Of a stretch of 64,000 nt of DNA, positions 2,528-27,087 are shown piece by piece. Source of the stretch: Clostridium sp. CAG:288 (GTDB lineage Bacteria > Bacillota_I > Bacilli_A > RFN20 > CAG-288); contig FR898166.1 in the NCBI GenBank assembly GCA_000437395.1, positions 58,724-122,723 of the forward strand. Direction: 5' to 3'. Position numbers and translations under genes: made by a program. The notes under the pieces are model-generated. The model had not been told where the DNA came from. It ran no database searches and was given only the letters and a program-made list of their open reading frames with translations. Positions within the stretch are counted from its first letter, which is position 1. Each line of letters opens with the position of its first letter.

Positions 2528-3622
2528 ATGGAATATAACTTTGATGAAGAAATAGCGTTTTTAACTGATATTACTTTAGCAAAAGGCGTATCAGGAAGAG
2601 AAAAAGAGGTGGCTAAAACTTTTATAAAGTATGCCGAACCATATGCTGATGAAATTAAACGAGATGCTTTAGGTAACGTAATAGCTTATCACTATGGTAA
2701 ACCAAATGGACCAGTGGTCATGATGTGTGGCCATATGGATGAGGTAGGCTTTTTTGTTAAGTCTATAGAAGATAACGGGTTAATTAGACTTCATCCAATT
2801 GGTGGTTGGTGGCCACTTTGTTTGCCAAGCGATTTATTTGTAGTTACAAATAAAGAAGGCAAAGAATTTTTGGGTGTTATCGGCGCTAGAGCTCCTCATG
2901 GTGTTCCTCAAGAACAAAGAAAAAATGTTATTCCACTTGAAAATCTTTACTTAGATTTAGGTGTTAAAGATAAAAAGATGGTTGATGACTTGAAAATTAA
3001 AGTTGGTGATATGGTTACACCTAAAGTTGATTTCCACGTTATGAACGACGGCAAGACTTTAATGAGCAAAGCTTTTGACGATAGAATCGGAGCTGCAATA
3101 GCTTTAAGAGTTTTAAAAAATCTTAAAGGAGTTGAAACTGAATGTACATATGTTTGTGTTGGAACAACTCAAGAAGAAGTTGGATTACGTGGTGCTAAGA
3201 CAAGCGCTTATGGTGTTGAACCAGATATAAGTTTTGCTACTGATGTTTCACTTTCTCACGACACTCCAGATGTTTTAGATGGAGGCGATAGTAAACTTGG
3301 TGCTGGTGTAGCTATGACTTTATGTGATGCCGGCATATTATCTCATCCAGGTTTAGTCAACTACTTAAAAGAAACAGCTCAAAGACTTGATATTCCTTAT
3401 ACAAACGATTTCATGGCAGCAGGATCAACTGATGCTGGCACTATTCACAAAACAAGAGAAGGAGTTATGACAATGACAGTCTCCTTAGCTTGTAGATATT
3501 ATCATTCTCCATACTCTATGATTAACTATGATGATTATATAAACGCTTGCAAACTTATGACTGAAGCTATTAAGAATGTTGATCGTAAAGTAGTCAATAA
3601 AATTAGAGAAGCAAAGTATTAA
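2528..3622 (+). CDS. M42 family metallo-aminopeptidase (FrvX/CelM-like)
   Basis: Motif MMCGHMDEVGF and overall length of about 365 aa are typical of M42 peptidases. ATG at 2528 is preferred over the track start because of a GAGGTG RBS at 2514-2519. Confidence 0.8.
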   Translation: MEYNFDEEIAFLTDITLAKGVSGREKEVAKTFIKYAEPYADEIKRDALGNVIAYHYGKPNGPVVMMCGHMDEVGFFVKSIEDNGLIRLHPIGGWWPLCLPSDLFVVTNKEGKEFLGVIGARAPHGVPQEQRKNVIPLENLYLDLGVKDKKMVDDLKIKVGDMVTPKVDFHVMNDGKTLMSKAFDDRIGAAIALRVLKNLKGVETECTYVCVGTTQEEVGLRGAKTSAYGVEPDISFATDVSLSHDTPDVLDGGDSKLGAGVAMTLCDAGILSHPGLVNYLKETAQRLDIPYTNDFMAAGSTDAGTIHKTREGVMTMTVSLACRYYHSPYSMINYDDYINACKLMTEAIKNVDRKVVNKIREAKY

Positions 3623-3631
3623 TAAGGGCAA

Positions 3632-3667
3632 TTAAGAAATAAAAATATTTCTTAATGTCCTTTTTTT
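3632..3667 (+). terminator. rho-independent terminator after the M42 peptidase gene
   Basis: Inverted repeat TTAAGAAATA/TATTTCTTAA followed by a T7 run. Confidence 0.5.
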
Positions 3668-3962
3668 AATTTGAATAAATAAAGAATAAAATTTAAGTAT
3701 ATATTGAATAAAAAAAGCATAAAATATTAATAAATATTTAAGAATTATAGTAAAAAACTACAAAATCAGAAAGAATATTGAGTTTTTAGTAAGAAAAAAT
3801 CGATATTAATGTTTTAATTTCAAAGTTCCATTAACTTATGATGAAAGTTGGAATTAGATAATGGAAAAGTTTAATTCAATTAGACGCGGAGAAAACTATA
3901 TTATTTTACTTAATATGTTAAAAGAGTATAATTCGACAAATAAGTAATAATAAAACACAATT

Positions 3963-3991
3963 TTGGAAATTTTTAGGCTACGTGCTATAAT
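3963..3991 (+). promoter_or_regulatory. sigma-A type promoter for the ABC exporter operon
   Basis: -35 TTGGAA (3963-3968), 17-bp spacer, extended -10 TGcTATAAT (3986-3991). It sits about 35 nt upstream of the AAGGAG RBS of the 4028 gene. Confidence 0.45.
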
Positions 3992-4027
3992 AGCATAAGT
4001 TTTTATATGCAAATAAAGGAGTAACCT

Positions 4028-4768
4028 ATGAACGATGAAGACTATATTTTAAAAGTAGATCACCTGAATAAAAAATATGGCGATAAAATAGTTTTAAAAG
4101 ATTTGTCTTTTAACGTTAAAAAAGGTGAAATATTTGGTTTTATTGGAAGCAATGGTACTGGCAAAAGTACAACTATTAAATGTCTAACAAATATTGTTAA
4201 TTATGATAGTGGAGATATTATCATAAACGGATTTTCTTTAGATAAAAATCCTATAGACGCTAAAAAGTCTTTTGGTTTAATTATGGAAGAACCGTGTGTA
4301 TATGAAGATATGAGTGGAAAAGAATTCGTTTCTTTCACTGCTTCAATTTATGGTGTAAATAAAGAGACTTTTGAAACTAGATATGAAGAGCTAGTTTCAA
4401 AGTTTAATATGAAAAACGATATGAATAAACTTATAAAGTTTTATTCTCATGGTATGAAACAAAAAGTTGCCATGATTGCTTCACTTATTCACGAACCAAA
4501 GCTTTGGATTCTGGATGAACCTTTGACTGGGTTAGATATTATAACTGTCAAAGAGTTGATAGATTATATGAAAGATTATAGAGAAAAAGGAAACTCTATA
4601 TTTTTAACGTCTCACAATATAGATATAGTTGAAAAAATATGCGATAGAGTAGTTTTTATTCATAAAGGAAAAATACTAAATACATACGATTTACATTCTG
4701 ATTTGAAAAAAGGATTTAGTCTTTCAGATGAATTCTTTAAACTAGTTAAGGAAAATAGCGATGATTAA
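4028..4768 (+). CDS. ABC transporter ATP-binding protein (ABC-2 exporter type)
   Basis: Walker A GSNGTGKST, signature-like YSHGMKQKVAM, Walker B LWILDEP. Confidence 0.85.
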   Translation: MNDEDYILKVDHLNKKYGDKIVLKDLSFNVKKGEIFGFIGSNGTGKSTTIKCLTNIVNYDSGDIIINGFSLDKNPIDAKKSFGLIMEEPCVYEDMSGKEFVSFTASIYGVNKETFETRYEELVSKFNMKNDMNKLIKFYSHGMKQKVAMIASLIHEPKLWILDEPLTGLDIITVKELIDYMKDYREKGNSIFLTSHNIDIVEKICDRVVFIHKGKILNTYDLHSDLKKGFSLSDEFFKLVKENSDD

Positions 4769-6326
4769 GTTACTTTTAAAAAAAGAATGGTCAATATTTA
4801 AACATAAAAAGCTAAACGATAATATTGTTAGTTTTATAATAAATGCAATTATTAGCTTAGCTATTTTTGTTGTTATCATATATATATTTAACGCTTTAAA
4901 TGCTAGATTTGTAAACTATGGAGTAAGCGATAAGTTATTAGCCTTCACTTTAGGAGCAATTGGTTTTTTTGAAAGCTTAGTGATGATAAAAAAGATTGAT
5001 AAAAACATTTACGATATAAAAGATATGGAACTAGTGTTTTCATCACCTATTTCAATGAAAGACTTAGTAATTTCCAAATATATTGCGTTATATATTAAAG
5101 AGCTAGTTTCTTTAGCGCCATTATTTATAGCTGTAATAATTTGTTTTGGCTTAAAAACAGCTTTTACATTTAGCTTAATTCTTGGCTTATTTTTAACTAT
5201 ATTTTTTGAGCCGATATGGATAATTTTCTTTGCAACTATCTTATCTTTCCCAGCACATTATTTGTTTGAATTTTTAAAAAATCATTCCATAGTTCAAGTA
5301 ATCTTATCTATTGTTTTAGTGTCGATATTTTCTTTAGCTTATTATTACGTTTTAAAAGTTTTTATTGACCTTATAAGTGAAGGAAGACTAAATTATCTTT
5401 TCAGTGATTCAAATATGGAAATTTTAAGTGTTATTAATAATGTTTTAATCCCATCAATCTTCTTAAAAAATATATTGACTGGTGAAAACTTACTAGTTTC
5501 TAGTACTGTTATTATTTTTGGAAGTATTTTATTGTTAACTATAAGCGTTTTAGCTTTGTTATTTTATTATAGTTGGATTAAAGATCACTCATTAACTTTA
5601 AATTTGAAAAGAAAAGAAAAGAGAGCAAAAGTATATAACTTTAAAATTGCTCAACTAAAGAAAGAGTTTATAGTTATGTTTAGAAATTCAAATAATTCTT
5701 TCTTATATTGCACTTTGTTGCTATCGTTAAGCTTTATTTGTTTAGCTATATGTTTAGCTTTAAAAGAACTCGTTATTAAACTACTAGGTTCAACATTTAG
5801 TTTTTATCCATTTGCGTTATTGATTGTTAGCGTCTTTGCTTGTGTTATTAATGGGATAGGTTCTAACACTATTTATAGTGAAAAAAAGAATATTGCCTTA
5901 ATTAAAACTTCACCAATCGCATATAGAACACAAATAAATATAAAACTTTTGAGCTTAAGTATCATGTCTTTAATTTCTATAGCTTTAACTGCGTTAGCTT
6001 TATATGTTGGCAAAGTGTTAAACATTATCGAATCTCTTAGCTTATTTATTACAGTTTTATTCTTAGTGTTAGTAACGATAACTAGTATTTTATATTTAGA
6101 TTTAAAAAGACCTACAAAAACTCATAAAGCTGATTTTGTATTACTATTTGGAATCTTAGTACCTGGTATAACAAGCTTCTTATCGTTGATATTCTTTTAT
6201 TATGTTGGAAAAAGTATTATGTTATATATTCCTTTGTTATTAACTGCTATTATTTTTGCAGCTTCTTTTATAGTTTTAGAATTAAATATATCTAAATTAG
6301 TAAATAAATTGGAGGTGAATTTATGA
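4761..6326 (+). CDS. ABC transporter permease, polytopic (about 12 TM helices)
   Basis: 521 aa and highly hydrophobic with many predicted TM segments. Its start overlaps the ATPase stop by 8 nt. Confidence 0.7.
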   Translation: MIKLLLKKEWSIFKHKKLNDNIVSFIINAIISLAIFVVIIYIFNALNARFVNYGVSDKLLAFTLGAIGFFESLVMIKKIDKNIYDIKDMELVFSSPISMKDLVISKYIALYIKELVSLAPLFIAVIICFGLKTAFTFSLILGLFLTIFFEPIWIIFFATILSFPAHYLFEFLKNHSIVQVILSIVLVSIFSLAYYYVLKVFIDLISEGRLNYLFSDSNMEILSVINNVLIPSIFLKNILTGENLLVSSTVIIFGSILLLTISVLALLFYYSWIKDHSLTLNLKRKEKRAKVYNFKIAQLKKEFIVMFRNSNNSFLYCTLLLSLSFICLAICLALKELVIKLLGSTFSFYPFALLIVSVFACVINGIGSNTIYSEKKNIALIKTSPIAYRTQINIKLLSLSIMSLISIALTALALYVGKVLNIIESLSLFITVLFLVLVTITSILYLDLKRPTKTHKADFVLLFGILVPGITSFLSLIFFYYVGKSIMLYIPLLLTAIIFAASFIVLELNISKLVNKLEVNL

Positions 6327-8434
6327 AGTATAAAGTAATAAGTTCATTATTGTTATTACCAATTTTATTAACATTAATAGTCTTTACTTCTAGCAAATCA
6401 ATAAAGTTACCTACGGATACTAAGGCTGACAAAATAGTTTTAGAGCACGATAAACTTGAAGTAGTAAAGTTAGGTGAAAAATTAAAACTTAGCGCCTACG
6501 CAATTCCTAAAAACGTTTCAAATGCTCAGATAGAATTCTCAGTTAGTAATGAAGAGTACGCAAACATTGAAAGTAAAGAAGACGAATACTATTTAATTCC
6601 TAAAAAAGAAGGTTATGTTAGAGTAAATGCTTATACTAGCGATAAACTTATTTATTCAAGTTTTGAGGCTTATATATACGAGGATAAAGGTTTAGGAGCT
6701 CAAGAAATATTAATATATGACGATAACTTTTCTTATAGTGGTATCGATAATAATTATGTTTATGGTCAATATGATTTGGATAAAAATGGAAATAAAGTAT
6801 TAGCGACAAATGAACTACAAATAAAAGTAGTTGGATCAAAAAATCAAAATGTCGATATAGATGTTATAAAAGGAAATGCAAAAGTTAAAGATAGAAAGAT
6901 AACTTTTATCAATGGTGAAGACGTAGTGATAAAAGTTAGTTCTATTACTAATAGTAATATTTCAAAAGAATATACTTTTAATGTCGTCCCTGATGGTGTT
7001 AACGTTTATAATTATGAAGATCTAATGATTTGTACTAATAAATCTGAATCTGGTGAAAAAGTAGTTTTAAGAACTAACTTTGAAAGCAAAGAAAACGCCT
7101 TACTAGATCCTAAGGATTTAAATAGTGCTACTTATTCAAATACAAATTTATTTGGTAGAGTTTTAAATAATAAATTAGAATTTGATTACGAGACAATAGA
7201 GTCTACATACGATACTACATATCAAGATAACTTAGCCAAATTTAATAATTTAAGCTCAGATGAATTAAAAAAGAGCAAAGAGTTAAAAGTTGGATTAGTC
7301 ATAAAAAAAGATTTCTATGGTAACGGATTTACTATCAACATGCACGAAATGTGTTATCCAAGTGAAAGAATTGGTGGTGGCGCTCCACTATTAGGTAAAA
7401 ACGATTTATTTAGAGGCCCAATCTCTTTTGTTGAAGCTTTGGGTATGGCTAAAGTGTCAGGGCAAGATAATATAGGAACACTAATAAAAGGTGATAATAT
7501 AACATTGTCTAACGTTAATATAAAAAATTGTAGCAACGTTAAAGACTTAACATTCTTGGATTATGTAGGAACGACATTAGAAATAATGGGTAATAATGTA
7601 ACAGTTAAAGATTCAATAATATCTAATGGAAGAACAGTAATAAGATCTTTTTCAAACGAAAACTTATTGATTGATAACTGCTTAGTTCAATTTGGAAGAG
7701 AATTTTTAATTAAAGCAGGTTCAAACTCAGTTATCAAGCCAACTCAAGATATCGATTTAAGCAATATGAGTGATGAAGAAATAAATAACTTCTTAGCACC
7801 GGAGTTACCAATAGATGCAAACACTAAAAAAAGCGTTTCAGATTCTTCTATAACTATAAACGATACTTATTTATATAAATCAGGATTATTTAGTATTGGT
7901 ATTGACACTCATTTTGCTGGTCAACTCCTATATGATGCAACGACAACAAGCATTGGAGCATATTTCCCAGAAGTAAAAAATATGGCAGGCACATCTTATG
8001 CTACTAATATGAAGATAACAGGAAATACAAAAATGTTTGACTGGAAAGATGTCAAAAGTCTTGATTCTTCGACATTAATTCAAGTTATTAGTAATGATTT
8101 AGATGTTAATAAGTACTTTAATTTGCAAGAACTAGTTGAAAATTATGTAACTAAAGAAGATACATCATTTGCTATAAACGATAACGGTAAAACTTATGTA
8201 CATGGTGGAATAGCAATGTATGGTGGTGGTAAAAACTACTCTGAAGTTGAAATAGAAGATGAATTATTATCAGAATTTAAGAATATTGATGCTTTAAGTT
8301 TAACAGGATTAATTACTTTAGCAGCTGGAACTGAACCATTTAGGTTTAAACTATATACAAGTCAGTCAACGCCAGTTACTATTAATGAAGTTCCGAATAT
8401 TGACGATTTAAAAAATAATATAAAAAGTAATTAA
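6323..8434 (+). CDS. membrane-anchored surface protein with a bacterial Ig-like (Big_2-like) domain and right-handed beta-helix repeats
   Basis: N-terminal hydrophobic anchor LLLPILLTLIVFTSS. Big_2-like segment LKLSAYAIPKNVSNAQIEFSVSNEEYANIE. Repetitive NV.I.N / G.NVTV.DS.I.N segments typical of parallel beta-helix. Start overlaps the permease stop by 4 nt. Confidence 0.5.
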   Translation: MKYKVISSLLLLPILLTLIVFTSSKSIKLPTDTKADKIVLEHDKLEVVKLGEKLKLSAYAIPKNVSNAQIEFSVSNEEYANIESKEDEYYLIPKKEGYVRVNAYTSDKLIYSSFEAYIYEDKGLGAQEILIYDDNFSYSGIDNNYVYGQYDLDKNGNKVLATNELQIKVVGSKNQNVDIDVIKGNAKVKDRKITFINGEDVVIKVSSITNSNISKEYTFNVVPDGVNVYNYEDLMICTNKSESGEKVVLRTNFESKENALLDPKDLNSATYSNTNLFGRVLNNKLEFDYETIESTYDTTYQDNLAKFNNLSSDELKKSKELKVGLVIKKDFYGNGFTINMHEMCYPSERIGGGAPLLGKNDLFRGPISFVEALGMAKVSGQDNIGTLIKGDNITLSNVNIKNCSNVKDLTFLDYVGTTLEIMGNNVTVKDSIISNGRTVIRSFSNENLLIDNCLVQFGREFLIKAGSNSVIKPTQDIDLSNMSDEEINNFLAPELPIDANTKKSVSDSSITINDTYLYKSGLFSIGIDTHFAGQLLYDATTTSIGAYFPEVKNMAGTSYATNMKITGNTKMFDWKDVKSLDSSTLIQVISNDLDVNKYFNLQELVENYVTKEDTSFAINDNGKTYVHGGIAMYGGGKNYSEVEIEDELLSEFKNIDALSLTGLITLAAGTEPFRFKLYTSQSTPVTINEVPNIDDLKNNIKSN

Positions 8435-8600: not shown

Positions 8601-9077
8601 ATGAAGAAGAGATTAAAGAAAGGTTTTACCTTAGTTGAATTAGTCGTAGTTATTGCTATCATTGCAATTCTATCAGCTGTTTCAGTTGCTGGTTACTTCG
8701 GATTCACAACAAATGCTAGAAAGACAGCTACAAAGCAAGAAGCAAAAGATATTGCTAACTTAATTTTAGTTGTTGCTGCTGATGAAGAAACAACAGGTGT
8801 TACAAATGATGGAACAAAAGTTACACTTACTTATGAAGTTGTAACTGAAGATTCAGCTGTTGCAACTGGTAAATATAAATCTGATGCTGATGCATTAATT
8901 GCTGCTTTAGCAACAGCAGGTTGGACAATGCCAACAGATGCAAAACTTACTGAAGTTATAGAAACTGGTGTTACTAATGGTGCAACAGATAAAGAAATCA
9001 AAACATTAAAATACGAACACAATAGCTTTGCATATACCATTACAGTTGGTACTGGTGATGTAGCATTTGTTGCTTAA
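8601..9077 (+). CDS. type IV pilin / competence-pilus major pilin (class III signal peptide)
   Basis: MKKRLKKG|FTLVELVVVIAIIAILSAV is the canonical prepilin leader with Gly-1 and Glu+5. AGGAAAGGAA RBS upstream of the ATG at 8601. The track start at 8559 is probably too far upstream. Confidence 0.8.
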   Translation: MKKRLKKGFTLVELVVVIAIIAILSAVSVAGYFGFTTNARKTATKQEAKDIANLILVVAADEETTGVTNDGTKVTLTYEVVTEDSAVATGKYKSDADALIAALATAGWTMPTDAKLTEVIETGVTNGATDKEIKTLKYEHNSFAYTITVGTGDVAFVA

Positions 9078-9112: not shown

Positions 9113-9140
9113 GACTGTGGTGAAAAGCCACAGTTTTTTA
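9113..9140 (+). terminator. rho-independent terminator or attenuator immediately after the major pilin gene
   Basis: GACTGTGG-tgaaaag-CCACAGT stem-loop followed by TTTTTTA. This arrangement is typical between major and minor pilin genes. Confidence 0.6.
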
Positions 9141-9311
9141 TTGCCATAAAATAACTAATCATGCTACGAATGTAGATAAATTAATATAAAAGGCATTTTT
9201 ATATCGTTATATATGTCTAATTTGATCGAATTATATAAAAAATATCTATTATTAATTACTAAAGTAATTAAAATATATCACTGAATAATGTTTTAATGTT
9301 ATAATTAAATC

Positions 9312-9782
9312 ATGAATAAATATAAGTCACACAAAAGATTTAAGCTTGGTTTTACTTTAGTAGAATTAGTTGTTACTTTAGCACTTATTGCAATTGTTAC
9401 TGGAATGACTTCTACTTTTTTATACATGTTTATAAAAATTAACAATAATATCGATACTTATAGAAAGACTTATCAAAATGCTAATTCAATAGCTTATATT
9501 CTTTCAACGTTTGTCGATCAAAAAAATGATGGCGGTTTAAGTGTTGGAAGTGAGAATAACTTGTTAAATTATACAGATGAAGAAAACACATATACACTTT
9601 ACTACAACTCTGAAACTGATGAGCTTATTTATAACGATAAAAGTCTATATGCTTCTGAAGATAATAGTTTAGAAATATCGATAACTTATCTTGAAAAATA
9701 TGAAGATAAACAATTAATTAAATTTGAAATTAGTTATGACAACAACAAAAGATCGATGTCTTTAATTAAGACTCTATACTGA
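9312..9782 (+). CDS. minor (pseudo)pilin with prepilin leader
   Basis: MNKYKSHKRFKLG|FTLVELVVTLALIAIV class III signal. Confidence 0.75.
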   Translation: MNKYKSHKRFKLGFTLVELVVTLALIAIVTGMTSTFLYMFIKINNNIDTYRKTYQNANSIAYILSTFVDQKNDGGLSVGSENNLLNYTDEENTYTLYYNSETDELIYNDKSLYASEDNSLEISITYLEKYEDKQLIKFEISYDNNKRSMSLIKTLY

Positions 9783-9796
9783 TGAAAGGAGAAAAT

Positions 9797-11107
9797 ATGG
9801 CAAAGACTGTAAATAACAATATTAGCTTATGCATTGAATATGTTGATACTTATTTGACTTGCTGTTTTAATTGCTTTTATTTAGATCAAAAATCAGGAGA
9901 AATAATTAAGACGAACAAATTTAAAGTTGAAGGTGGAGACATAGTTTCAACTTCAGCAATGGAAATAAGAAAGATTGCTGAAGAGATAAAAAAAGATGCA
10001 AACGAATTAGGAAAAACAATTGTTGGAAAAATTAATTATGTCGTTGCATCTAAAAGTGTTTTCTCATATTCAAACATTTTTCCAAAGATAAACAAGAAAA
10101 AGATAGTGCAATATTCTCGTAGAGATTTAGAAATGTCTTTCCCAGATTTTAAAAAGAAGAATGTGTATATTGAAAACTGGCATGAAGATGGAAATTTAGG
10201 AACATGTATTTTAACTACTTTGTTGCCTATTACTGTTTTTGAAAGACTTGATTTGTTGTCACGTGAAATTGGTTTGAAAATGGGAAATGTCACAACATCA
10301 AGCGTTTGTTTAAACGAAAGATATAAACAAAATTATCCTGAAGAATTTGATTCTGGTGCTTTAATTAACATTGAAGCTGACTATACAGTTATAAGCTTGA
10401 TTGTAAATAAAGTTATGGTTGATTCAGTTTTTATCAATGAAGGATTTGAATCTGTTTCAGAAGATGAAAACACATTTTGTGCTTTAGTTAAAAATAGATT
10501 AATTTCTGTTATTGCTAAACATGAATTCGGACTTGAAAAAGCTTCAATTTCTACAATAAAGATTACTTCTACAAACAACATCATTTCTAGCGCTCTTGAA
10601 AAGTATTTAGAGAGTACAACATCGTTTGTAGTTGGTTATACTCAAGCAAAGGAATTAGCTTATTGTAACTTTGATACTAAGAAAAGCTTTGCTAAATTTA
10701 AAAAAGAGTTTTTTAAAAAAGGCTTCACTTTAGTTGAAGTTGTAGTTTCGTTAGCATTATTTGCTATTCTTTCAGGTGTAGCTTTAGGTTGTATTGTACC
10801 TATGACTAATACAGTTAAGAATGCTGAGAGAAATTCAAATATAAGTAGAACAGTAAATGATATAACTGAAACTTTTAGACTTTATCATGATAATTTTGCT
10901 ACTTATTATTATGAAATAAATAATGTTACTGGAGATATCGTAGAAAACAAATTATTTTACGATAAAGATGTTAACGTTATTTCTAGTGAAGAAAATAGTT
11001 TTTATACACTTAACTATACATTGGACGGATCAACATTAACTATAGACAGTTTTGTTAAAACTGGAACTACAAAAAGTTTATTAAAAAGTGTAACAATACG
11101 AGGCTAA
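9797..11107 (+). CDS. PilM-like (actin-like ATPase fold) N-terminal domain fused in frame to a C-terminal prepilin-type pseudopilin domain
   Basis: The first ~300 aa have PilM-like architecture: ISLCIEYVDTYL near the start and ADYTVISLIVNKVMVDSVFINEG later. Residues ~305 onward are KKG|FTLVEVVVSLALFAILSGV, a canonical class III signal. There is no in-frame or out-of-frame start codon between the two parts. The AAAGGAG RBS favours ATG 9797. Confidence 0.5.
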   Translation: MAKTVNNNISLCIEYVDTYLTCCFNCFYLDQKSGEIIKTNKFKVEGGDIVSTSAMEIRKIAEEIKKDANELGKTIVGKINYVVASKSVFSYSNIFPKINKKKIVQYSRRDLEMSFPDFKKKNVYIENWHEDGNLGTCILTTLLPITVFERLDLLSREIGLKMGNVTTSSVCLNERYKQNYPEEFDSGALINIEADYTVISLIVNKVMVDSVFINEGFESVSEDENTFCALVKNRLISVIAKHEFGLEKASISTIKITSTNNIISSALEKYLESTTSFVVGYTQAKELAYCNFDTKKSFAKFKKEFFKKGFTLVEVVVSLALFAILSGVALGCIVPMTNTVKNAERNSNISRTVNDITETFRLYHDNFATYYYEINNVTGDIVENKLFYDKDVNVISSEENSFYTLNYTLDGSTLTIDSFVKTGTTKSLLKSVTIRG

Positions 11108-11109
11108 AT

Positions 11110-11523
11110 ATGAAAAAGAGAAGAAGAGAAGAAAAAGGAGCTGTATTAATTGCTACCATCGCTATTCTGGCATTTGTTGGTATTATGATGGGCTTTTTAG
11201 GTCAGCTTGTTTTGTATACTTCAAACTATTCTTCTTCTTTAAATAATGCTTATAAGGTTAAAAGAATCCTAACTAATGATTGCTATTTATTTGTTGAAAA
11301 TATAGATTCATCAAAAACTATTGATGAAAATATCAGTACTATTTCAGGTTTGTTAGAAAATTCAAAATATGTTGATGAGTCTATGACTTATTACATCGAT
11401 ACGGATGTTAAAACTGGTGGTAATTTTTCTTTGACCTATAAAAGATATCAAGCAGATGTTGTATTTGTAATTAATGATTCATCTATAACTTTAAAAAGTT
11501 TAACTATAAAGGGAGCAAAATAA
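11110..11523 (+). CDS. pseudopilin-like bitopic protein lacking Glu+5 (ComGG/PilX-like or PilN-like)
   Basis: MKKRRREEKG|AVLIATIAILAFVGIMMGFL. Its C-terminal end (ITLKSLTIKGAK) resembles the C-terminus of the upstream fusion protein (SLLKSVTIRG), suggesting paralogy. Confidence 0.4.
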   Translation: MKKRRREEKGAVLIATIAILAFVGIMMGFLGQLVLYTSNYSSSLNNAYKVKRILTNDCYLFVENIDSSKTIDENISTISGLLENSKYVDESMTYYIDTDVKTGGNFSLTYKRYQADVVFVINDSSITLKSLTIKGAK

Positions 11524-12317
11524 TGGATTTATTTATTCAAATATTTATCGGAGTTTTGTTCTTTGTTATCGGTACAGTATTTGCAAGTTTTTCTAATGTT
11601 TTGATTTATAGATTACCGTTAGAACAATCTATAGCTTATCCTGCTAGTCATTGTCCTCAATGTGGTGCTGAACTCAAGTGGTATGAAAATATACCGCTTT
11701 TCAGCTATATATTTTTAAAAGGTAAATGTGGTCATTGCCATCAAAAAATATCTCCGAGATATTTTATTGTTGAACTGTTAGGCGGTTTATTATCATTAGC
11801 TTGTTATTTAAAACTTGGTTTTGGTGTCGACTCAGTAATAGGAGCAATTAGTGTCATAATTTTAGTAGCTATCGCCTTTATCGATGCTGAACACAAAATT
11901 ATTCCTTTATCGCTAAATATAACATTAGGTGTGTTAGCTATTCTTAAATTAGTATTAAATATTATTTTTACTCCAAACTATCCATGGGTTCATTATTTAA
12001 TTGGCTTTGGAGTATTTGCTGTTTTATTCTTAGCTGTCTATTTTTTAGCAATATTATTTTATAAGCAAGAAGGCCTTGGCTTAGGAGATGTAATTCTTAT
12101 GAGCATTTGTGGATTATATCTAAATTGGAGTGGAGCCTTTATTGTATTTTTAGCTTCATCTGTCATATGTGCAATTGTTATGATAATCTTAATAGCTATT
12201 AAAAAACTTAAGAGAAACGAAGAGTGGGGATTTGGTCCTTATATTGCAATTGCCTTTGTAATTATGATTTATTTCAGTAACGATTTGTTAAGTTATATAC
12301 TTAGCTTTTTATCGTAG
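11523..12317 (+). CDS. pilD: prepilin peptidase (A24 family)
   Basis: Zinc-binding CPQCG...CGHC N-terminal motif and multi-TM body of 264 aa. Located in the pilus operon. Confidence 0.85.
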   Translation: MDLFIQIFIGVLFFVIGTVFASFSNVLIYRLPLEQSIAYPASHCPQCGAELKWYENIPLFSYIFLKGKCGHCHQKISPRYFIVELLGGLLSLACYLKLGFGVDSVIGAISVIILVAIAFIDAEHKIIPLSLNITLGVLAILKLVLNIIFTPNYPWVHYLIGFGVFAVLFLAVYFLAILFYKQEGLGLGDVILMSICGLYLNWSGAFIVFLASSVICAIVMIILIAIKKLKRNEEWGFGPYIAIAFVIMIYFSNDLLSYILSFLS

Positions 12318-12329
12318 AAAGGAGAAAAG

Positions 12330-13574
12330 ATGCCTTACTTTCAATATAAGAGTATAACCATTGATGGAATAAAAAAAGATGGTACCAAAGAAGCTTCGAG
12401 TTATGAAGATCTCAAGTGTATCTTAAAAGATAAAGGTGAATACTTATTAGAAGCAAATATAGCTAAAGAAAAAAGACGTTCAAACTTCTTAACTGCAACA
12501 AATAGAGTTTCTCCTAGAGCAGTTGCAAACTTTTGTCGTCAATTTTCTATTCTTTTAGATGCTGGTGTCAGCGTTGCTGATAGCTTGGATGTTTTAAGAA
12601 AGCAAAATTTCTCAACATATTTTAAAAACGTTATTTCTGATATATATGATTCAGTTTTAAAAGGCATGTCCATCTCTGATGCTATGAGAAAATACCCAAA
12701 AATATTTAAATCATTTGTTGTCAATATGGTTCATATCGGTGAATTATCAGGTGACTTAACTAAAGTACTTATCAAAGTGGCTGATTACTTAGAAAACGAT
12801 CAGAAAATCAAGTCTAAAACTAAAAGTGCTATGGTTTATCCTTTATTTTTACTTGTAGTAGTCACAATTGTTACAGTAGTTTTGATGGTATTTGTCGTTC
12901 CTCAATTTGAAAAGATAATTCTTGAAAATGGTGGTAAAGTGCCTGGAATTACTAGAGTTGTTTTATCTATATCTCACTTCTTTACTGAATATTGGTTTAT
13001 TTTAATACCTGCTATTATAGTTGTTATTATGCTGTTAGTCTTCTTCTTTACTCGCACTCAAAAAGGAAAGTATTGTCGAAACTTTTTAGCCATTCATCTT
13101 CCAATATTAAAAACAGTTACAATTGAAACTATTACAACGAGATTTACTACAGCTTTTTCAATTTTAATTGATTCAGGTATGCCTGTAATTGATTCTATGG
13201 AAGCTTTGATACCAATTCTTGATAATAAATTCTTTGAATCGAAGTTTGTCTATGCTATTGAGGATATTCGTCGTGGTAAAAGAATAGCTCCATCAATTGA
13301 AAAATGTGATATTTTTCCAAAGATGCTTATAGAAATGTTAGATGTTGGTGAAGAGTCATCAAGACTTTCTGAAGTCTGCGATACAGTCAGTAAATACTAT
13401 TCAGCTCAATTAGCTAACTCCATTCAAAAGTTAAGTTCAATACTTGAACCTGTAGTTATAATTATCATGGGTGTATTAGTTGGAACAATTATACTAGCTG
13501 TATTCTTACCAATTATGGAAATGACAAATTCTATGGGAAATCTCGATAGTGATATTCCTGATTTAGATGTATAG
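12330..13574 (+). CDS. pilC: type IV pilus / T2SS platform protein (GspF/PilC family)
   Basis: 414 aa with two T2SSF-like cytoplasmic repeats separated by TM helices (VYPLFLLVVVTIVTVVLMVFV ... VVIIIMGVLVGTIILAVFLPI). Confidence 0.85.
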   Translation: MPYFQYKSITIDGIKKDGTKEASSYEDLKCILKDKGEYLLEANIAKEKRRSNFLTATNRVSPRAVANFCRQFSILLDAGVSVADSLDVLRKQNFSTYFKNVISDIYDSVLKGMSISDAMRKYPKIFKSFVVNMVHIGELSGDLTKVLIKVADYLENDQKIKSKTKSAMVYPLFLLVVVTIVTVVLMVFVVPQFEKIILENGGKVPGITRVVLSISHFFTEYWFILIPAIIVVIMLLVFFFTRTQKGKYCRNFLAIHLPILKTVTIETITTRFTTAFSILIDSGMPVIDSMEALIPILDNKFFESKFVYAIEDIRRGKRIAPSIEKCDIFPKMLIEMLDVGEESSRLSEVCDTVSKYYSAQLANSIQKLSSILEPVVIIIMGVLVGTIILAVFLPIMEMTNSMGNLDSDIPDLDV

Positions 13575-13583
13575 GAGGTAAAT

Positions 13584-15272
13584 ATGAACCTTAATCAACA
13601 AATTGCTGAGTTCTTTGTACAAAAAGGACTTATAGATCCAGAATCAAAGAATAAGATTTTAGCTGAATCAGAAGCAAAGTCTATTAGCTTTTATACTAGC
13701 TTATTAAAAGATCAAGTAGTTGATGAAACTAAAGTATTTGAAGCTTTGTCAGAGTTTTATTCATTAGAATTTTATAACACGTCTGTTTATAATTTGAACG
13801 AAGAGATTATTTCAAAAATTCCAATGTCTTTTATTAAAGACAATAGAATGATCCCTTTTGCTATAGAAAATAATTCACTTGTCGTTTTAATTGATGAGCC
13901 ATATAGAGTTGTCGATGTTGATGCTTTATCATACTTCTTTGATAAACCAATAGTAGTTAAACTTGTTACTACTTCAAGTATGAACGGCATGCTTGGTTAT
14001 ATTGATAATAGACGTAGAAGAGCTGATGCTATGTCAGCAATTTCAAACGAATTATCAGATGAAAAAAAGAATGTAAAAGTAACAATTGACGCATCACAAT
14101 TAATCGATGCTCCTACAGTTAAATTAACAGATTCAATAATTAGAGAAGCAACATTGACAGGCGCTTCTGATATTCATATTGAACCATTTGATGGCTTAGT
14201 CAGAGTAAGGTTCAGATTGGATGGTAAATTGTTTACTAACACTCAATTACCTGCAGAATCATTTCCAGCTATTTTAGCTCGTTTTAAGATTATGGCTGGC
14301 ATGGATATTTCAGAACGTCGTATTCCTCAAGATGGTAAGATAACTATGGAAATAGATGGAAGAAAATATGATTACCGTGTTTCCACAGTTCCTATGGCTT
14401 TTGGAGAAAAGATAGTTATTCGTATATTTGATACCTTTGATAATCATTCAGATATATCTAAATTAGGCTTGGATGAAAGACAAGAAAAATTAGTCAGAAG
14501 AATGATTAGTTATCCACATGGTATTTTACTTTTGACAGGTCCAACAGGTTCAGGTAAAACAACATCTTTGTACTCATTCTTAAAGTCTTTGAATAAAGAA
14601 GATGTAAATATTACTACTATTGAAGATCCAATTGAAAATAACATTTCAGGAGTTAACCAAATCCAAGTTAATTCTAAAGTAAACATGACTTTTGCTGCTG
14701 CTTTAAGAGCAATTTTAAGACAAGACCCTAACATTATTATGATCGGTGAAATTAGAGATGAAGAAACAGCAGAAATCGCTGTAAAAGCCGCTATCACTGG
14801 TCACTTGGTTCTTTCGACTCTTCACACCAATAGCGCTCATGGAACTATTTCACGTTTAGTAGATATGGGTATACCTAAATACTTAGTTGCTGACGCTTTG
14901 ATTGGTGCTATTTCTCAAAGATTAGTTAGAAAACTTTGTCCAAACTGCAAAAAGCCGCACATGACAACGCCTGAAGAAATGAAAGAACTAGGTTTGACTG
15001 AACCAGTTCAAATATATGAACCAGGATCTTGTGGCAATTGCAATAATACAGGTTATCATGGAAGAACAGGTGTCTTTGAAATATTAAACATGAATCCAAC
15101 AATTAAAAAAGCTATTGAAATGCCTGAATTTTCCATGGAGACTATTTATGATGCTTGCGTTAGTAGTGGTATGATTCCACTTAAGGAAGCAGCAAAGAAA
15201 TTAGTATTAGAAGGAGTAACATCATACTCTGAATATATAGCTTTATTAGACAATGATACGGAGATTAAATAA
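13584..15272 (+). CDS. pilB: type IV pilus assembly ATPase (GspE/PilB/ComGA family)
   Basis: GspE N-terminal domain, Walker A GPTGSGKTT, Asp and His boxes, and tetracysteine CPNC...CGNC zinc motif. Confidence 0.9.
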   Translation: MNLNQQIAEFFVQKGLIDPESKNKILAESEAKSISFYTSLLKDQVVDETKVFEALSEFYSLEFYNTSVYNLNEEIISKIPMSFIKDNRMIPFAIENNSLVVLIDEPYRVVDVDALSYFFDKPIVVKLVTTSSMNGMLGYIDNRRRRADAMSAISNELSDEKKNVKVTIDASQLIDAPTVKLTDSIIREATLTGASDIHIEPFDGLVRVRFRLDGKLFTNTQLPAESFPAILARFKIMAGMDISERRIPQDGKITMEIDGRKYDYRVSTVPMAFGEKIVIRIFDTFDNHSDISKLGLDERQEKLVRRMISYPHGILLLTGPTGSGKTTSLYSFLKSLNKEDVNITTIEDPIENNISGVNQIQVNSKVNMTFAAALRAILRQDPNIIMIGEIRDEETAEIAVKAAITGHLVLSTLHTNSAHGTISRLVDMGIPKYLVADALIGAISQRLVRKLCPNCKKPHMTTPEEMKELGLTEPVQIYEPGSCGNCNNTGYHGRTGVFEILNMNPTIKKAIEMPEFSMETIYDACVSSGMIPLKEAAKKLVLEGVTSYSEYIALLDNDTEIK

Positions 15273-15883
15273 TGAAAAATAAAAGTGTACTTTTAATATT
15301 GTTTTTGGTAGTGGCACCATTACTATCAGCATGTAATTCTAAAACATCAGATCAATTACAGTTTTTAATTACATATAAGGCTGATGGAACTGAAGCTATA
15401 AAATACGGCTTGTTTTTTGATAAAGATGAAATAACTTCATCTAACTTTAATTTAAATTTAGAAAAAGTTGGCAAAGTAAAATATAGTACTTCAATATCTA
15501 ACGGTAACTATTCAGTAAAAAATATTAATGCAACAGAGTTAGAAGTCGGAGACCTTTTAACAATTAGATTAGATAAAAAAGCTAAAATTTCTAAATTAAA
15601 AAGTTATGATTTCTTGAAAGACGCATCGAGTATTGTTGCTAGAAATGGCGCTCGTTCAAAAGGTTGGATTTTAAATTCTAAGGTTCATTATGGCGATGAA
15701 ATATCTTATGGAGATTTTGCTTATAGTGAATTGCCACTATTTGTTTCTAAAGATAGTAAGGTAATAGATCCAAATAGCTTGCAAGAAAAAGAAACTGGCT
15801 ATGGTGGATATTATAAGTATGGTGATAAAGATCAATATAAATATATGTTCCCATTTGTTTTAGATGGTAATACTAGACAATAA
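15272..15883 (+). CDS. lipoprotein, function unknown
   Basis: Signal peptide with lipobox LLSAC. Start overlaps the pilB stop (ATAATG). Confidence 0.5.
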   Translation: MKNKSVLLILFLVVAPLLSACNSKTSDQLQFLITYKADGTEAIKYGLFFDKDEITSSNFNLNLEKVGKVKYSTSISNGNYSVKNINATELEVGDLLTIRLDKKAKISKLKSYDFLKDASSIVARNGARSKGWILNSKVHYGDEISYGDFAYSELPLFVSKDSKVIDPNSLQEKETGYGGYYKYGDKDQYKYMFPFVLDGNTRQ

Positions 15884-20224: not shown

Positions 20225-20447
20225 ATATCTCTCTTTCTATCGAATTCTGATCAATTATAAAATTCGAATTTAATTTGCATTAAATATACAACAATAATTT
20301 ATCATATGCAATAAATATTTAAATGTTTTTTCAAGCTTAATAAAAAGTTACAATTTCGTTACATTTTGTTATGTAATATATTTATCTTTGCATTAATATA
20401 AATTAACATTTATACTTTATGTGAAGGAAGGAAAATATATTACTTTT

Positions 20448-22694
20448 ATGAACTCGGAAGTGAAAACTTATAATGTCATAGCTCCTTTTATTTTACATAA
20501 GAGAATATTGACTTTAAAAAATTCAAATATAAACATTAAGCTTTTTACCAAAGAATCTTTCTTTGAATTATTTTTAGGTTCGGTTGATAAATTGGATGTT
20601 TTAAACATATCTAAGCACGAAAATATTAGTTATAGTGAAAGTGCAATATATGCAGCTTATATGCCTTATATTAAAGATAATCCAACCCATGAAAAAACAA
20701 AAAAAATTAAACATATAAAAGATAATAATCCGCTAAGAATAAATTTTATAGCTCAAAAAACTTTTAGAAAGTATGAAACATATATATATGGATATAATCC
20801 AGAAGATGATAGAAATTTATACGAAGTTTTAAATCATTTTAAACTTAATAGTATTACAAAAGATTATTCATTTAACTTGCCTAAAATACCATATTATGAA
20901 TACAGTGATGCTAGAATTGAAATTGGTGAAGCATTTAATAGAATAGCTTCATTAATCGATGATGGTGTAGAAGAAAAAGATATATCAATTATTTGTTCTG
21001 AGACATATTTAGTATTATTTAACCTGTATGCCCACCTTTTTAATATTAAACTAAATTATAATAATCCAAATTTATTTCAAAATATCGATAGTGTTAAACT
21101 TTACACTGAATGCTTAGAAGGTAAAGAAATAAAAGATGAAAATTATAGCAATGAATACTCTCCATATATAGAAGCTATTAACGCTTTAAAAGAAAAAGGT
21201 TATTCCAATGATAGCATTGCAGAATTTATAAAAAAGTCTTTAAAATCATCTAAATTAGACAGAGGAAATAATGGTATAAAAGTATATACATCAATTAATA
21301 CAGCTAATCCAAATAAGTATTTATTTGTCGTTGGTTTTAGTGACGAAATTTTATCTTCTAAAAAAGATAACGAGTATTTAAGTGATATTGAAAAAGTTGA
21401 TGATACTGTTTTGCAAGCAAGTTATGAAGTAACTAATAATAAAAAGCAATTTTTTAAAATATTGCTAAGCGAAACAAAATCAGCTATTTTTTCTTACTCT
21501 GATAAAAATTCAATTAACGATTCAAAAAAGATAGATAATTTAAGTGAGTATAACGTAATTGAAATGGGAAAAGATATCCTTTCAACTAAAAGATATTCTC
21601 TTAAGTTTGATCGTTTGATTTTGGACTTATTTAAAGACGATGAAGGAAAATATGGATTAGTAAGTCCATTAAGCCAATATCTAGATAAAAAAATAGGCTC
21701 TGATTATGATACATACGAACCTAATTATAAGTCTGATAAAAATATAGTAACTGATGATCAAATAAAATTATCAAATACAAGTTCTACTCTTTACAACAAG
21801 TGTCCATTGGCTTATTTTTTCAAATATTATTTAAAAGTTAAAGATGATTCAAATTCTTATGCCTTTGATTTGGGCAATATTGCACATAAAGGTATTGAAG
21901 AAAATGTAATTATTGATGATTCAAATCTTGAACAATTTACTAATGACTACCAGTTTAATTATAAGAAATTATTTTATTTGAAAAAGATGTTGAAATCAAA
22001 TAAAGAAATGAGAAAAAATTTAAGCGAGTTTATTGCAAACTTTAAACCAGATTTTATTGAAGAACATGAAAAGAAGTTGGAAAGTAAAATAGACGACAAT
22101 ACAACATTAGAAGGAAAATTTGATTTAATACTAGCCAGTGATAAAGAGTATTTTGTAATTGATTTTAAATCAAGCCCAAAAGATTATAAAGAAGTTTTAA
22201 ATTACTTTGGTTTTGATAACCAACTTCAAATATATTTGTACCTGTTTAGTCAGCAAAACGAGGAATTAATTCCAATGGGTGCTGTTTATGCTCCTTTGTT
22301 TTCAAAGTCTTTAAAAAGTAAAAACGGAAAAGAATTTATTTATTCTGGATATGTTGTAAGTAAAGAATTGTTGACAGATATAGTTGGAGAAAACGAATTT
22401 AAAAAATACTTTAAGGGAACTAAAGCGCAAAGAGATTTTAATACTCTAAAAAAAGATCAAGAACACCTTGTTAAACTTTTAAAAAATACAAGTTCAAATA
22501 TAAGAAAAGGAATTTTTAAGTTTACTCCAATTAGATGTAAAGATACTAAAGATTTAAATTCATGTAAAAATTGCACATATAAGGACATGTGTTTTTATCA
22601 ATCGAAAGATTTGATATTTGTTGATCTTCCAGATGAACTAAAAAAATCTAAAAAAGAGAATTTATCAGAAATTGATGACGGAGGAAATGACTAA
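20448..22694 (+). CDS. addB: AddB/RexB-like nuclease subunit of the AddAB helicase-nuclease (compact form)
   Basis: C-terminal RecB-family nuclease with an Fe-S motif: the first Cys in CPLAYFFKYYLK and three Cys in CKDTKDLNSCKNCTYKDMC. It lies immediately upstream of addA and its stop overlaps the addA start. No Walker A is seen in the N-terminal part. Start uncertain: GTG at 20421 or ATG at 20448. Confidence 0.75.
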   Translation: MNSEVKTYNVIAPFILHKRILTLKNSNINIKLFTKESFFELFLGSVDKLDVLNISKHENISYSESAIYAAYMPYIKDNPTHEKTKKIKHIKDNNPLRINFIAQKTFRKYETYIYGYNPEDDRNLYEVLNHFKLNSITKDYSFNLPKIPYYEYSDARIEIGEAFNRIASLIDDGVEEKDISIICSETYLVLFNLYAHLFNIKLNYNNPNLFQNIDSVKLYTECLEGKEIKDENYSNEYSPYIEAINALKEKGYSNDSIAEFIKKSLKSSKLDRGNNGIKVYTSINTANPNKYLFVVGFSDEILSSKKDNEYLSDIEKVDDTVLQASYEVTNNKKQFFKILLSETKSAIFSYSDKNSINDSKKIDNLSEYNVIEMGKDILSTKRYSLKFDRLILDLFKDDEGKYGLVSPLSQYLDKKIGSDYDTYEPNYKSDKNIVTDDQIKLSNTSSTLYNKCPLAYFFKYYLKVKDDSNSYAFDLGNIAHKGIEENVIIDDSNLEQFTNDYQFNYKKLFYLKKMLKSNKEMRKNLSEFIANFKPDFIEEHEKKLESKIDDNTTLEGKFDLILASDKEYFVIDFKSSPKDYKEVLNYFGFDNQLQIYLYLFSQQNEELIPMGAVYAPLFSKSLKSKNGKEFIYSGYVVSKELLTDIVGENEFKKYFKGTKAQRDFNTLKKDQEHLVKLLKNTSSNIRKGIFKFTPIRCKDTKDLNSCKNCTYKDMCFYQSKDLIFVDLPDELKKSKKENLSEIDDGGND

Positions 22695-27000: not shown

Positions 27001-27087
27001 TTTAAATTGCAAAAAGGTGTGATTTACTGCAAAAGTAGCAAACACATCTTTTTTTGTGATAGATTTATTAACATGAAAGGGGTATCA

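Follow-up and report, generated by a model that had tools for sequence, protein, structure and literature searches.

A conserved PilM-like/minor-prepilin fusion in a type IV filament operon of Clostridium sp. CAG:288, with a candidate prepilin peptidase site between its two parts

How pilins are handed over from the membrane to the assembly motor, and what role PilM/GspL-type proteins have, are open questions (PMC10191384, PMC6916266). They are raised in an unusual form by one gene in the 64-kb stretch of Clostridium sp. CAG:288 DNA analysed here (the window), where a single reading frame appears to join a PilM-like domain to a prepilin. Is this arrangement real, and does its product work as one protein or as two?

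The fusion gene and its operon

The gene occupies positions 9797 to 11107 of the plus strand and encodes a 436-aa protein (CDE16651.1) annotated "unknown". The frame is uninterrupted from 9782 to 11107 (+; 441 aa), in agreement with the single ORF of 436-441 aa reported in the first-pass annotation. ATG 9797 is the likelier start codon, because the sequence AAAGGAG lies five nucleotides 5' to it (9785-9791) and because 436 aa is the length found in orthologues and in the GenBank call CDE16651.1.

Genes in the region are ordered major pilin, minor pilin, fusion, small atypical pilin, PilD, PilC and PilB, all on the plus strand; the succession of pilins, PilD, PilC and PilB is as originally described. 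The probable major pilin (8601..9077; MKKRLKKG/FTLVELVV, the slash marking the processing position; N_methyl, 33.7 bits) was listed as an ORF starting at 8559, but ATG 8601, preceded by AGGAAAGGAAA, is the likelier start. A terminator-like hairpin follows this gene (9113..9142, plus strand; ACTGTGG-TGAAAAG-CCACAGT, then TTTTTT) and separates it from the tightly packed genes downstream; the scan also lists the stem on the minus strand (9134-9114). Next comes a minor pilin of 156 aa (9312..9782; KLG/FTLVELVV) with weak GspH/ComGD-like matches, whose stop codon overlaps ATG 9782. The fusion gene is followed by a small atypical pilin-like protein (11110..11523; MKKRRREEKG/AVLIATIAIL...) that lacks Glu at position +5 and resembles ComGG/GspK-type subunits. 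It has no family match in Pfam or NCBIfam and is kept at the same position in related loci. The prepilin peptidase PilD (11523..12317) is of the standard, bifunctional type, with an A24_N domain carrying four Cys (117.8 bits) and a Peptidase_A24 domain (50.5 bits). The platform protein PilC/GspF (12330..13574; T2SSF, 198 bits) scores best against GspF (319 bits, versus 154 for ComGB). The extension ATPase PilB (13584..15272; T2SSE, 435 bits) is a long form with an N-terminal MshEN-type domain (33.5 bits); the whole protein aligns with type IV-A PilB (549 bits), but only its core with ComGA (278 bits). A predicted lipoprotein gene (MKNKSVLLILFLVVAPLLSAC...; 15272..15883, plus strand) starts within the PilB stop codon. 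Its product has no family match and is not conserved after PilB in two related loci (L004 and L007); whether it is part of the system is uncertain.

No operon ORF matches a PilN or PilO family. A phmmer search of all frames of the 64 kb revealed no PilT (a PilB paralogue), bearing out the earlier statement that the window lacks a retraction ATPase. Rfam gave no match in the window. A promoter scan returned 47 sites against 49 expected.

A PilM-like domain joined to a minor prepilin

The N-terminal domain spans about residues 1-285 (9797..10651, plus strand). In Pfam and NCBIfam scans the prepilin motif was the sole match of the fusion protein, with no PilM family appearing even at E<=1, and six relatives (P0008, P0009, P0014, P0016, P0021 and P0023) likewise gave no PilM family match; identification of the domain as PilM-like therefore required profile methods. 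A profile of the domain searched against 1.84 billion sequences reached four PF11104 proteins (E 4.6e-7 to 8.5e-4), which themselves score 65-98 bits on Pfam PilM_2. When the domain family was aligned to PilMs with hhalign, the match had a probability of 99.3% (E 2e-20, 257 columns). In PDB searches a profile of 17 sequences had Myxococcus PilM 3jc8 as its sole meaningful match (E 0.007) and a three-sequence profile had none. A second word-indexed search, run with the 17-sequence alignment, returned four proteins, none informative.

The AF2 model of the fusion protein (pLDDT 87.9) predicts an actin-like fold with an FtsA/PilM-type 1C subdomain. It was built from a 22-sequence alignment that includes true PilMs and may bias the fold towards PilM; a first run on four close, PilM-free sequences gave a pLDDT of 52, yet the order of secondary-structure elements was identical. 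The top Foldseek matches, obtained with the pLDDT 87.9 model and not the pLDDT 52 model, were PilM 3jc8, 5eou and 2ych (E 1.5e-13 to 5e-10). We conclude that the domain is a highly divergent PilM-type actin-fold domain, a remote homologue of PilM. The PilM-like features that had been noted in the first 300 or so residues are thereby borne out, by profiles and predicted structure though not by Pfam or NCBIfam.

Compared with the PilM of type IVa pili (PF11104; 2YCH, 5EOU, 3JC8), the domain shares the actin-like FtsA/PilM fold and an LPK...E...FP region, and both are encoded with pilB, pilC and pilD. It differs in being shorter (about 300 aa versus about 350) with a reduced second lobe, in being missed by PF11104, in having no visible PilN/PilO partner in its operon and in being covalently joined to a prepilin. 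Subdomain 2B appears reduced and the ATP-binding motifs (phosphate-1 DxG, phosphate-2 DxG, adenosine GGG) are not conserved: hhalign pairs VDIGS and DIGF of PilM with CIEYVDT and INIEADYT of the window protein, so that CIEYVDT appears where PilM has its phosphate-binding DIGS. ATP binding has probably been lost, as in GspL.

A basic, aromatic-rich linker (residues 286-309; 10652..10723, plus strand; ...AYCNFDTKKSFAKFKKEFFKKG) connects the domain to the prepilin and ends in Gly309, the -1 position, the junction reading ...KEFFKKG/FTLVEVVVSLALFAILSGV. Its last 20 residues carry a net charge of +5; F292, F298, F306 and G309 are invariant in close orthologues, and the AF2 pLDDT drops to 54-78 across it. 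Hydrophobic moments are unremarkable (0.3-0.8), both in the linker and at the C-termini of the split forms (see below). An amphipathic membrane-binding tail was accordingly set aside and nothing beyond basic charge is claimed for the linker.

The segment KKG/FTLVEVVVSLALFAILSGVALGCIV has all the elements of a prepilin processing site: Gly at -1, a hydrophobic stretch of about 20 residues and Glu at +5. Both Pfam N_methyl (PF07963; 30 bits, cut-off 21.2) and TIGR02532 (28 bits, cut-off 16.3) match residues 307-330. What is atypical for a prepilin is the position of the motif, which starts at residue 307, after a folded domain of about 285 aa and a linker, instead of after a short leader. Among the fused sequences, Gly(-1) and Glu(+5) are kept in nine of nine despite an overall identity of about 20%, with Phe at +1 in eight and Met in one.

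The C-terminal moiety (residues 310-436; 10724..11104, plus strand) begins with F+1, E+5 and the hydrophobic alpha1N. AF2 predicts a helix at 312-362 and strands at 385-388, 403-410, 413-421 and 432-435 (pLDDT 73-91). Profile matches to PDB entries span the helix alone, and the output of the fold search was dominated by the N-terminal domain. Among named families ComGE/GspI and ComGF come closest, all under cut-off; for this moiety together with the split orthologues, ComGE was reached by six of seven members, GspI by six of seven and ComGF by five of seven, with scores that fall mostly in the N-terminal helix. By these sequence criteria, residues 310-436 are assigned to a small ComGE/GspI-like minor pilin. 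The description of this part as a canonical prepilin is upheld by PF07963, TIGR02532, the AF2 model and the alignment with split pilins. ComGE/ComGF and GspI share with it the small size and the G/FTLxE motif; their leader is 5-15 aa, against a segment of about 309 aa here. The system as a whole also departs from the Com pilus, in that the ATPase is PilB/GspE-like and the platform protein GspF-like (not ComGA/ComGB-like), and a PilM-like domain is present.

Fused and split forms of the gene pair

Runs of A6, T6 and A6, noted in the first-pass annotation as a possible source of error, were confirmed at 10700-10720 (10700-10705, 10709-10714 and 10715-10720), where they adjoin the Gly309 codon (10721-10723) on its 5' side. 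An indel in these runs could in principle have merged two genes during sequencing or assembly, the more so as the genes of distant relatives are separate, in some cases with an overlap, and could be joined by a change of 1 nt. This explanation is refuted by several findings. The exact window protein belongs to a cluster of 281 sequences at at least 90% identity from NCBI, ENA and Logan assemblies; the 15 members listed derive from many assemblies, one of them being present on 68 contigs, and their length is 436 aa in every case but one, called at 441. Orthologues from other samples at 43% and 39% identity are also fused and lie in syntenic loci (pilin, pilin, fusion, small ORF, PilD, PilC, PilB), as does a relative at about 20% identity (P0021), again with the gene order unchanged; nine fused sequences were found in total. 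One of these (L001) has a junction free of any 6-nt homopolymer, and the runs at the window junction are not conserved in L001 or in a second locus, L002. Moreover, a separate pilin would have neither an in-frame start codon nor a leader. The fusion is genuine and conserved, and the chance that it is an artefact is negligible.

In the pilin frame, no ATG, GTG or TTG occurs within 40 codons upstream of Gly309. The original claim had been broader, namely that none of these codons is present in any frame across the 100 nt or so before the junction. It holds for ATG and GTG but not for TTG, of which there are five, all out of frame (10626, 10632, 10663, 10671 and 10689).

More distant relatives have the same two components as separate genes. 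Four loci (L004, L005, L006 and L009) have a PilM-like gene and, after it, a separate prepilin gene with a short leader. The two genes overlap by 4 nt in L004 and by 17 nt in L006, and they lie 1 nt apart in L005 and 6 nt apart in L009. Leaders are 4-9 residues long (MMKKRG/MTLIE, MKNG/FTLVE, MILVNKRSG/FTLVE), and the split pilins match the fused C-terminal domain end to end in the alignment. A stop and a start codon between the two domains, proposed as the sign that they are separate genes, are thus found in these distant relatives alone (about 17-23% identity), whereas the close orthologues are fused. The fused proteins P0021 and P0020 retain a relic Met that precedes Gly(-1) by 5-7 residues (for example MRLARG/FTLIE). 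Since the pair exists both fused and split, the window gene is one state of a conserved gene pair. A neighbour-joining tree of the N-terminal domain is star-like, with fused members in three or more groups and their monophyly recovered in 1 of 100 bootstraps.

Cleavage by PilD and competing accounts

We read the gene as a fusion of two neighbouring genes in a type IV filament operon devoid of PilN and PilO. At roughly even odds (a probability of about 0.5), its product would be cut by PilD after Gly309 into two subunits, one PilM-like and the other a mature minor pilin. The alpha1N segment of the pilin would serve as an internal N-in/C-out signal-anchor, with the PilM-like domain thereby positioned on the cytoplasmic side of the membrane. 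Cleavage after Gly309 by PilD, whose gene lies two places further downstream, would then release at the same spot and in a 1:1 ratio a free PilM-like subunit of about 309 aa and a 127-aa mature minor pilin starting with Phe. The former may bind PilC, the long N-terminal region of PilB, or both, while the latter would enter the filament with the other minor pilins. In favour of cleavage are the constancy of G-1 and E+5 in all nine fused sequences, the positive linker, the relic Met of P0021 and P0020 and the presence of PilD in the operon. Because no start codon lies in frame in the 40 codons before the site in the window gene, a free pilin could arise only via proteolysis. Against cleavage, the constancy of G-1, F+1 and E+5 could equally reflect intramembrane contacts of an uncleaved helix. 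The prepilin leaders that have been described are hydrophilic, short and variable in length (PMC10191384), and the "leader" here is a folded domain, 309 residues in all. Furthermore, the known fusions of a PilM domain to a transmembrane segment are not cleaved, neither PulL/GspL (PMC10191384) nor the PilM-PilN protein of C. difficile (PMC6916266). The wider proposal that prepilin peptidase acts as a polyprotein-processing enzyme, one cut at the membrane providing both a minor pilin and a cytoplasmic assembly factor for a machine lacking PilN and PilO, is put forward tentatively, at somewhat less than even odds.

The main competing account is that the protein stays intact as a GspL- or PilMN-like tether, a bitopic protein with a nucleotide-free cytoplasmic domain binding PilB, one transmembrane segment and, on the outside, a pilin fold in place of the ferredoxin-like domain of PilN. 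An actin-like domain followed by a single transmembrane segment and a small ectodomain is the architecture of PulL/GspL (PMC10191384) and of C. difficile PilM-PilN (PMC6916266), where a PilM domain likewise lies N-terminal to a single transmembrane segment in a type IV pilus locus of a monoderm. Fusions of the PilM-PilN type (P0026 and P0028) also occur among the remote matches of the N-terminal domain profile. The operon has no recognisable PilN or PilO, which leaves the PilM-like domain in need of some other anchor, and the apparent loss of the ATP motifs would be shared with GspL. An uncleaved role, however, would require the function to have changed while every determinant of cleavage stayed in place: the pilin of the split relatives must be a normal PilD substrate, given its ordinary leader of 4-9 residues. 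In these relatives the PilM-like protein works without a covalent transmembrane segment. The ectodomain, too, is predicted to be a pilin lollipop and not ferredoxin-like. In C. difficile PilM-PilN, as in the apparently similar P0026 and P0028, the transmembrane segment and outside part are PilN and lack the Gly(-1)/Phe(+1)/Glu(+5) motif, whereas the window protein has a bona fide prepilin with short-leader split orthologues. In type II secretion systems, GspL/PulL (4PHT, 1YF5, 5TKW) has an outside domain that is ferredoxin-like instead of pilin-like and lacks the prepilin cleavage motif, and no GspL family of Pfam or NCBIfam matches the fusion at the sequence level. On balance we consider an intact tether less likely than PilD cleavage, of which it is the strongest competitor; these are the two models that the first-pass annotation had put forward. 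Far less probable is that two products arise without proteolysis, the pilin or the PilM-like part being made separately and the long ORF giving just one of several products. Translation would then start internally, or slippage would occur at the A6/T6/A6 runs during translation or transcription. The Met codons 5-7 positions before Gly(-1) in P0021 and P0020 and the three homopolymers at the window junction would suit such a scheme. So would the shortness of the alternative frames at the junction: followed from 30 codons before Gly309, frames +1 and +2 run into a stop after 8 and 11 codons, so that a frameshifted product would end soon after the shift. Against it, the 40 codons before Gly(-1) contain no in-frame ATG, GTG or TTG in either the window or L001, and neither L001 nor L002 shares the homopolymers. 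Inspection of the junction by eye shows no in-frame X XXY YYZ heptamer. As the promoter scan performed at chance level (see above), the promoter-like match at 10671-10698 gives no support to an internal transcript. More improbable still is the chance fusion of a pilin to an actin-fold domain foreign to pili, FtsA-like or sugar-kinase-like. The protein does escape Pfam PilM_2, but PilM is the only named family reached by sequence profiles, a similar score for FtsA being expected from the 1C-subdomain topology that FtsA and PilM share. In addition, every locus examined, fused or split, has the gene between pilin genes and pilD-pilC-pilB.

Two other families of pilins with additional sequence offer partial parallels to the fusion protein. 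The modular pilins PilB and PilC of Streptococcus sanguinis also carry a grafted extra domain (PMC8179133, PMC9934059); these modules lie at the C-terminus, outside the cell, and belong to the mature pilin, whereas the extra domain of the window protein is N-terminal, would be cytoplasmic and precedes the cleavage site. The mitochondrial GspG of Naegleria is a pseudopilin with an N-terminal extension of about 160 aa before the conserved processing site and proteomic peptides only downstream of it; its extension, however, serves for targeting and does not form a folded machine subunit, and a GspO homologue is absent (bioRxiv 10.1101/790865). A full-text literature search with little coverage of subscription journals found no description of a PilM-prepilin fusion.

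CAG:288-type gut Bacillota are common in human metagenomes. The fusion protein is annotated only as "unknown" or "hypothetical", and its PilM-like family escapes Pfam. The locus points to a minimal machine with no recognisable PilN and PilO. A conserved fusion of PilM and prepilin at the peptidase site, together with adjacent or overlapping split genes, argues that the two components cooperate physically, and the fusion provides a natural handle on how a pilin is coupled to the assembly machine. If the polyprotein reading is true, the fused and split forms would record a direct physical coupling of PilM-type proteins to the cytoplasmic end of a specific minor prepilin.

A PilM-like domain and a prepilin in one protein

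The fusion gene occupies a single open frame (9782-11107, +), which, from the ATG at 9797 with AAAGGAG just upstream (9785-9791), yields a product of 436 aa, the length found in orthologues and in GenBank. The identical database entry is CDE16651.1 from Clostridium sp. CAG:288, whose annotation is "unknown". Its junction reads ...KFKKEFFKKG|FTLVEVVVSLALFAILSGV (the bar marks the predicted PilD cut, after Gly309), with A6, T6 and A6 runs (10700-10720) immediately 5' of the Gly309 codon. The first-pass annotation had considered that an indel in these homopolymers merged two genes, an artefact that the relatives effectively exclude. At 90% identity or more, CDE16651.1 clusters with sequences from NCBI, ENA and Logan assemblies (281 in all); the 15 members listed have 436 aa, one being called at 441, and one member is present on 68 contigs. 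Two homologues (43% and 39% identity) align over the full length, with GFTLVEVVVSLA invariant in both, and lie in loci syntenic with the window. In L002, the locus of a close fused orthologue, synteny extends upstream to a phosphorylase, an ABC transporter, a 12TM protein and a ~700-aa protein. L001, the other such locus, is fused yet lacks 6-nt homopolymers at the junction, and the distant fused protein P0021 (~20% identity) has the same gene order as the window. Thus, the comparison of orthologous loci proposed at first pass yielded fused relatives, and the fusion is real. A profile search with the N-domain against 1.84 billion representatives returned 26 proteins in all, nine of them carrying a G[FM]TLxE motif after that domain (P0002, P0003/P0004, P0008, P0016, P0017, P0020, P0021, P0023 and a fragment of the window protein).

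Pfam and NCBIfam recognised a single feature in the fusion protein, the cleavage/methylation motif of prepilins (residues 307-330; 30 bits in Pfam, cut-off 21.2, and 28 bits in NCBIfam, cut-off 16.3), consistent with the signal peptide originally proposed. The motif sits internally, from residue 307, and not N-terminally as in a canonical prepilin. In the AlphaFold model the C-domain consists of helix 312-362 and four strands; its nearest named families (ComGE, GspI and ComGF) all fall under cut-off and rest largely on the helix. The C-domain is a prepilin: a small minor pilin whose subtype is uncertain.

The PilM-like nature ascribed to the N-terminus was borne out by profile comparison and structure prediction. 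The weakest matches of the N-domain profile (P0019, P0024, P0026 and P0028) are genuine Pfam PilM_2 proteins (65-98 bits), and hhalign related these four to a 17-sequence alignment of the N-domain family with 99.3% probability (E 2e-20, 257 columns). Searched against PDB sequences, the 17-sequence profile gave a sole match below E 0.01, Myxococcus PilM 3jc8 (E 0.007). AlphaFold reached a pLDDT of 52 from 4 close sequences, and 87.9 (pTM 0.68) from 22; Foldseek ranked PilM (3jc8, 5eou, 2ych) ahead of FtsA, itself ahead of GspL/EpsL. The N-domain is PilM-like, and the whole protein is homologous to both PilM and prepilin families despite the absence of a match to the PF11104 (PilM) model and the position of the motif. 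The domain is ~50 residues shorter than PilM, and the family does not conserve the positions that align with PilM's phosphate-binding motifs (CIEYVDT and INIEADYT in the window, where PilM has VDIGS and VDIGF). Judging from the alignment, it is probably a nucleotide-free PilM/GspL-like module. After its last strand, an aromatic/basic pattern recurs at residues 286-309 of the window protein (10652-10723; F292, F298, F306), in another fused clade (DLFKKNVFN) and at the C-termini of split relatives (...DFSFDIKG, ...YRLKGIKL, ...SSFWTFRLR); it may close the fold, dock back onto the domain as a PilN-like peptide, or act as a membrane tail.

Operon and machine type

The window has the order major pilin, hairpin, minor pilin, fusion, small atypical pilin-like ORF, PilD, PilC, PilB, in keeping with the first reading (pilins, PilD, PilC, PilB). 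Listed from 8559, the major pilin ORF (+) probably starts at ATG 8601, with an RBS-like AGGAAAGGAAA upstream and the leader MKKRLKKG. Its stop is followed by a strong terminator-like hairpin and T-run (9113-9142), and an AT-rich gap of 170 nt precedes the next pilin gene, suggesting that the major pilin is expressed separately and at a higher level. The minor pilin starts at 9312 (+). The small ORF starting at 11110 (+) has KG|AVLIATIAIL, with no Glu+5; it resembles ComGG/GspK-type subunits, and its position is conserved across related loci. The ATPase aligns end to end with type IV-A PilB, N-terminal MshEN-type domain included, whereas ComGA matches the core only, and the platform protein matches GspF/PilC better than ComGB; these matches point to a T4aP/T2SS-like rather than a Com-like system. 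PilN and PilO are not recognisable in the operon, and no PilB paralogue occurs anywhere in the 64-kb window, in line with the reported lack of PilT.

Three genes lie directly upstream of the pilin genes (4028-8434), encoding an ABC ATPase, a membrane protein of 12-TM type (so assigned from synteny with L002) and a signal-peptide protein of 703 aa that matched no family; this trio also precedes the pilus locus in L002. Elsewhere, 17543-20224 (-) encodes an 893-aa predicted lipoprotein without a Pfam match; its N-terminal part has a long tract rich in Ser and Thr, and its C-terminal part a run of prolines (PLPPPPPPSL). The intervals 20421-25750 and 27007-31680 hold a PD-(D/E)XK nuclease and UvrD-type helicase pair (AddB/AddA-like), then two GH28-family proteins, one with an F5/8 type C domain.

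Split relatives and history of the pair

Four loci carry the PilM-like gene directly before a separate, short-leader prepilin gene, then PilD and PilC, with PilB next wherever the contig reaches that far. The two genes overlap by 4 nt in L004 (Bacilli MAG) and by 17 nt in L006 (a clearly low-GC, Firmicute-like contig binned as Parabacteroides), and lie 1 nt apart in L005 (Clostridia MAG) and 6 nt apart in L009 (GCA_046540115.1), where a small ORF separates PilD from the prepilin and PilC is cut off by the contig end. The partner pilins align with the fused C-domain over the full length (20-23% identity). Therefore, the PilM-like protein and a particular minor pilin are a conserved pair, existing fused or split; its members are probably translationally coupled. 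P0021 and P0020 have a Met 5-7 residues ahead of Gly(-1) (e.g. MRLARG|FTLIE), which resembles a start codon left over from a time when the prepilin was separate. A neighbour-joining tree did not resolve a single fusion event from several.

The L006 locus (CAVFNL010000045.1, 6686-13049; binned as Parabacteroides distasonis) is of low-GC Firmicute type and reads two pilins, PilM-like gene with overlapping prepilin gene, PilD, PilC, PilB; the contig is probably mis-binned. In L004, very large prepilin-motif proteins of 388 and 496 aa (3166-4332 and 12850-14340), candidate modular pilins with C-terminal domains, flank the machine genes. In the split PilM-like protein of that locus (P0018, 7401-8549), the PilM-like domain is preceded by an additional TM helix at the N-terminus and a Glu/Lys-rich linker of ~90 residues, an alternative means of membrane anchoring. 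The PilD ORF of L005 (6791-8044, high-GC MAG), listed at 417 aa, has a long Arg/Ala-rich N-terminal extension that may be an over-long call in GC-rich DNA.

Cleavage or tether

PilM-TM fusions (GspL, PilMN) and pilins with extra modules are already known. In GspL/PulL and C. difficile PilM-PilN, a PilM-type domain is joined to a TM partner (PMC10191384, PMC6916266). S. sanguinis pilins carry extra modules, but C-terminal and extracellular ones, and a mitochondrial pseudopilin has a 160-aa N-terminal extension (10.1101/790865). In the full-text literature searched, whose coverage was incomplete, we found no account of a prepilin cleavage site preceded by a fused PilM-type domain. Two remote profile matches, P0026 (520 aa) and P0028 (413 aa), belong genuinely to Pfam PilM_2; each runs on into a TM segment followed by an outside domain, and they look like PilM-PilN-type fusions such as that reported for C. 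difficile.

G-1 and E+5 are invariant in all nine fused sequences, +1 being F and once M; the linker before Gly309 is positively charged, and a standard PilD is encoded nearby. In the main rival to cleavage, the protein would stay whole and function in the manner of GspL/PulL or C. difficile PilM-PilN, the pilin fold replacing PilN's outside domain. This would account for the missing PilN, yet the pilin would have to switch role while retaining every cleavage determinant, and we regard it as possible but the less probable course. Separate production of the pilin by internal initiation or slippage is unlikely in the window, where this pilin moiety has no independent start. The earlier statement that no ATG, GTG or TTG occurs in any frame over ~100 nt before the junction fails for out-of-frame TTG codons (10626, 10632, 10663, 10671 and 10689) and stands for the pilin's frame, which has none of the three within 40 codons upstream of Gly309. 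Cleavage by PilD after Gly309 is the reading we favour, at a probability of about 0.5. The hydrophobic alpha1N of the pilin moiety would insert N-in/C-out, PilD would then cut, and the PilM-like subunit would be set free from a mature minor pilin; the split relatives encode these two proteins in separate genes.
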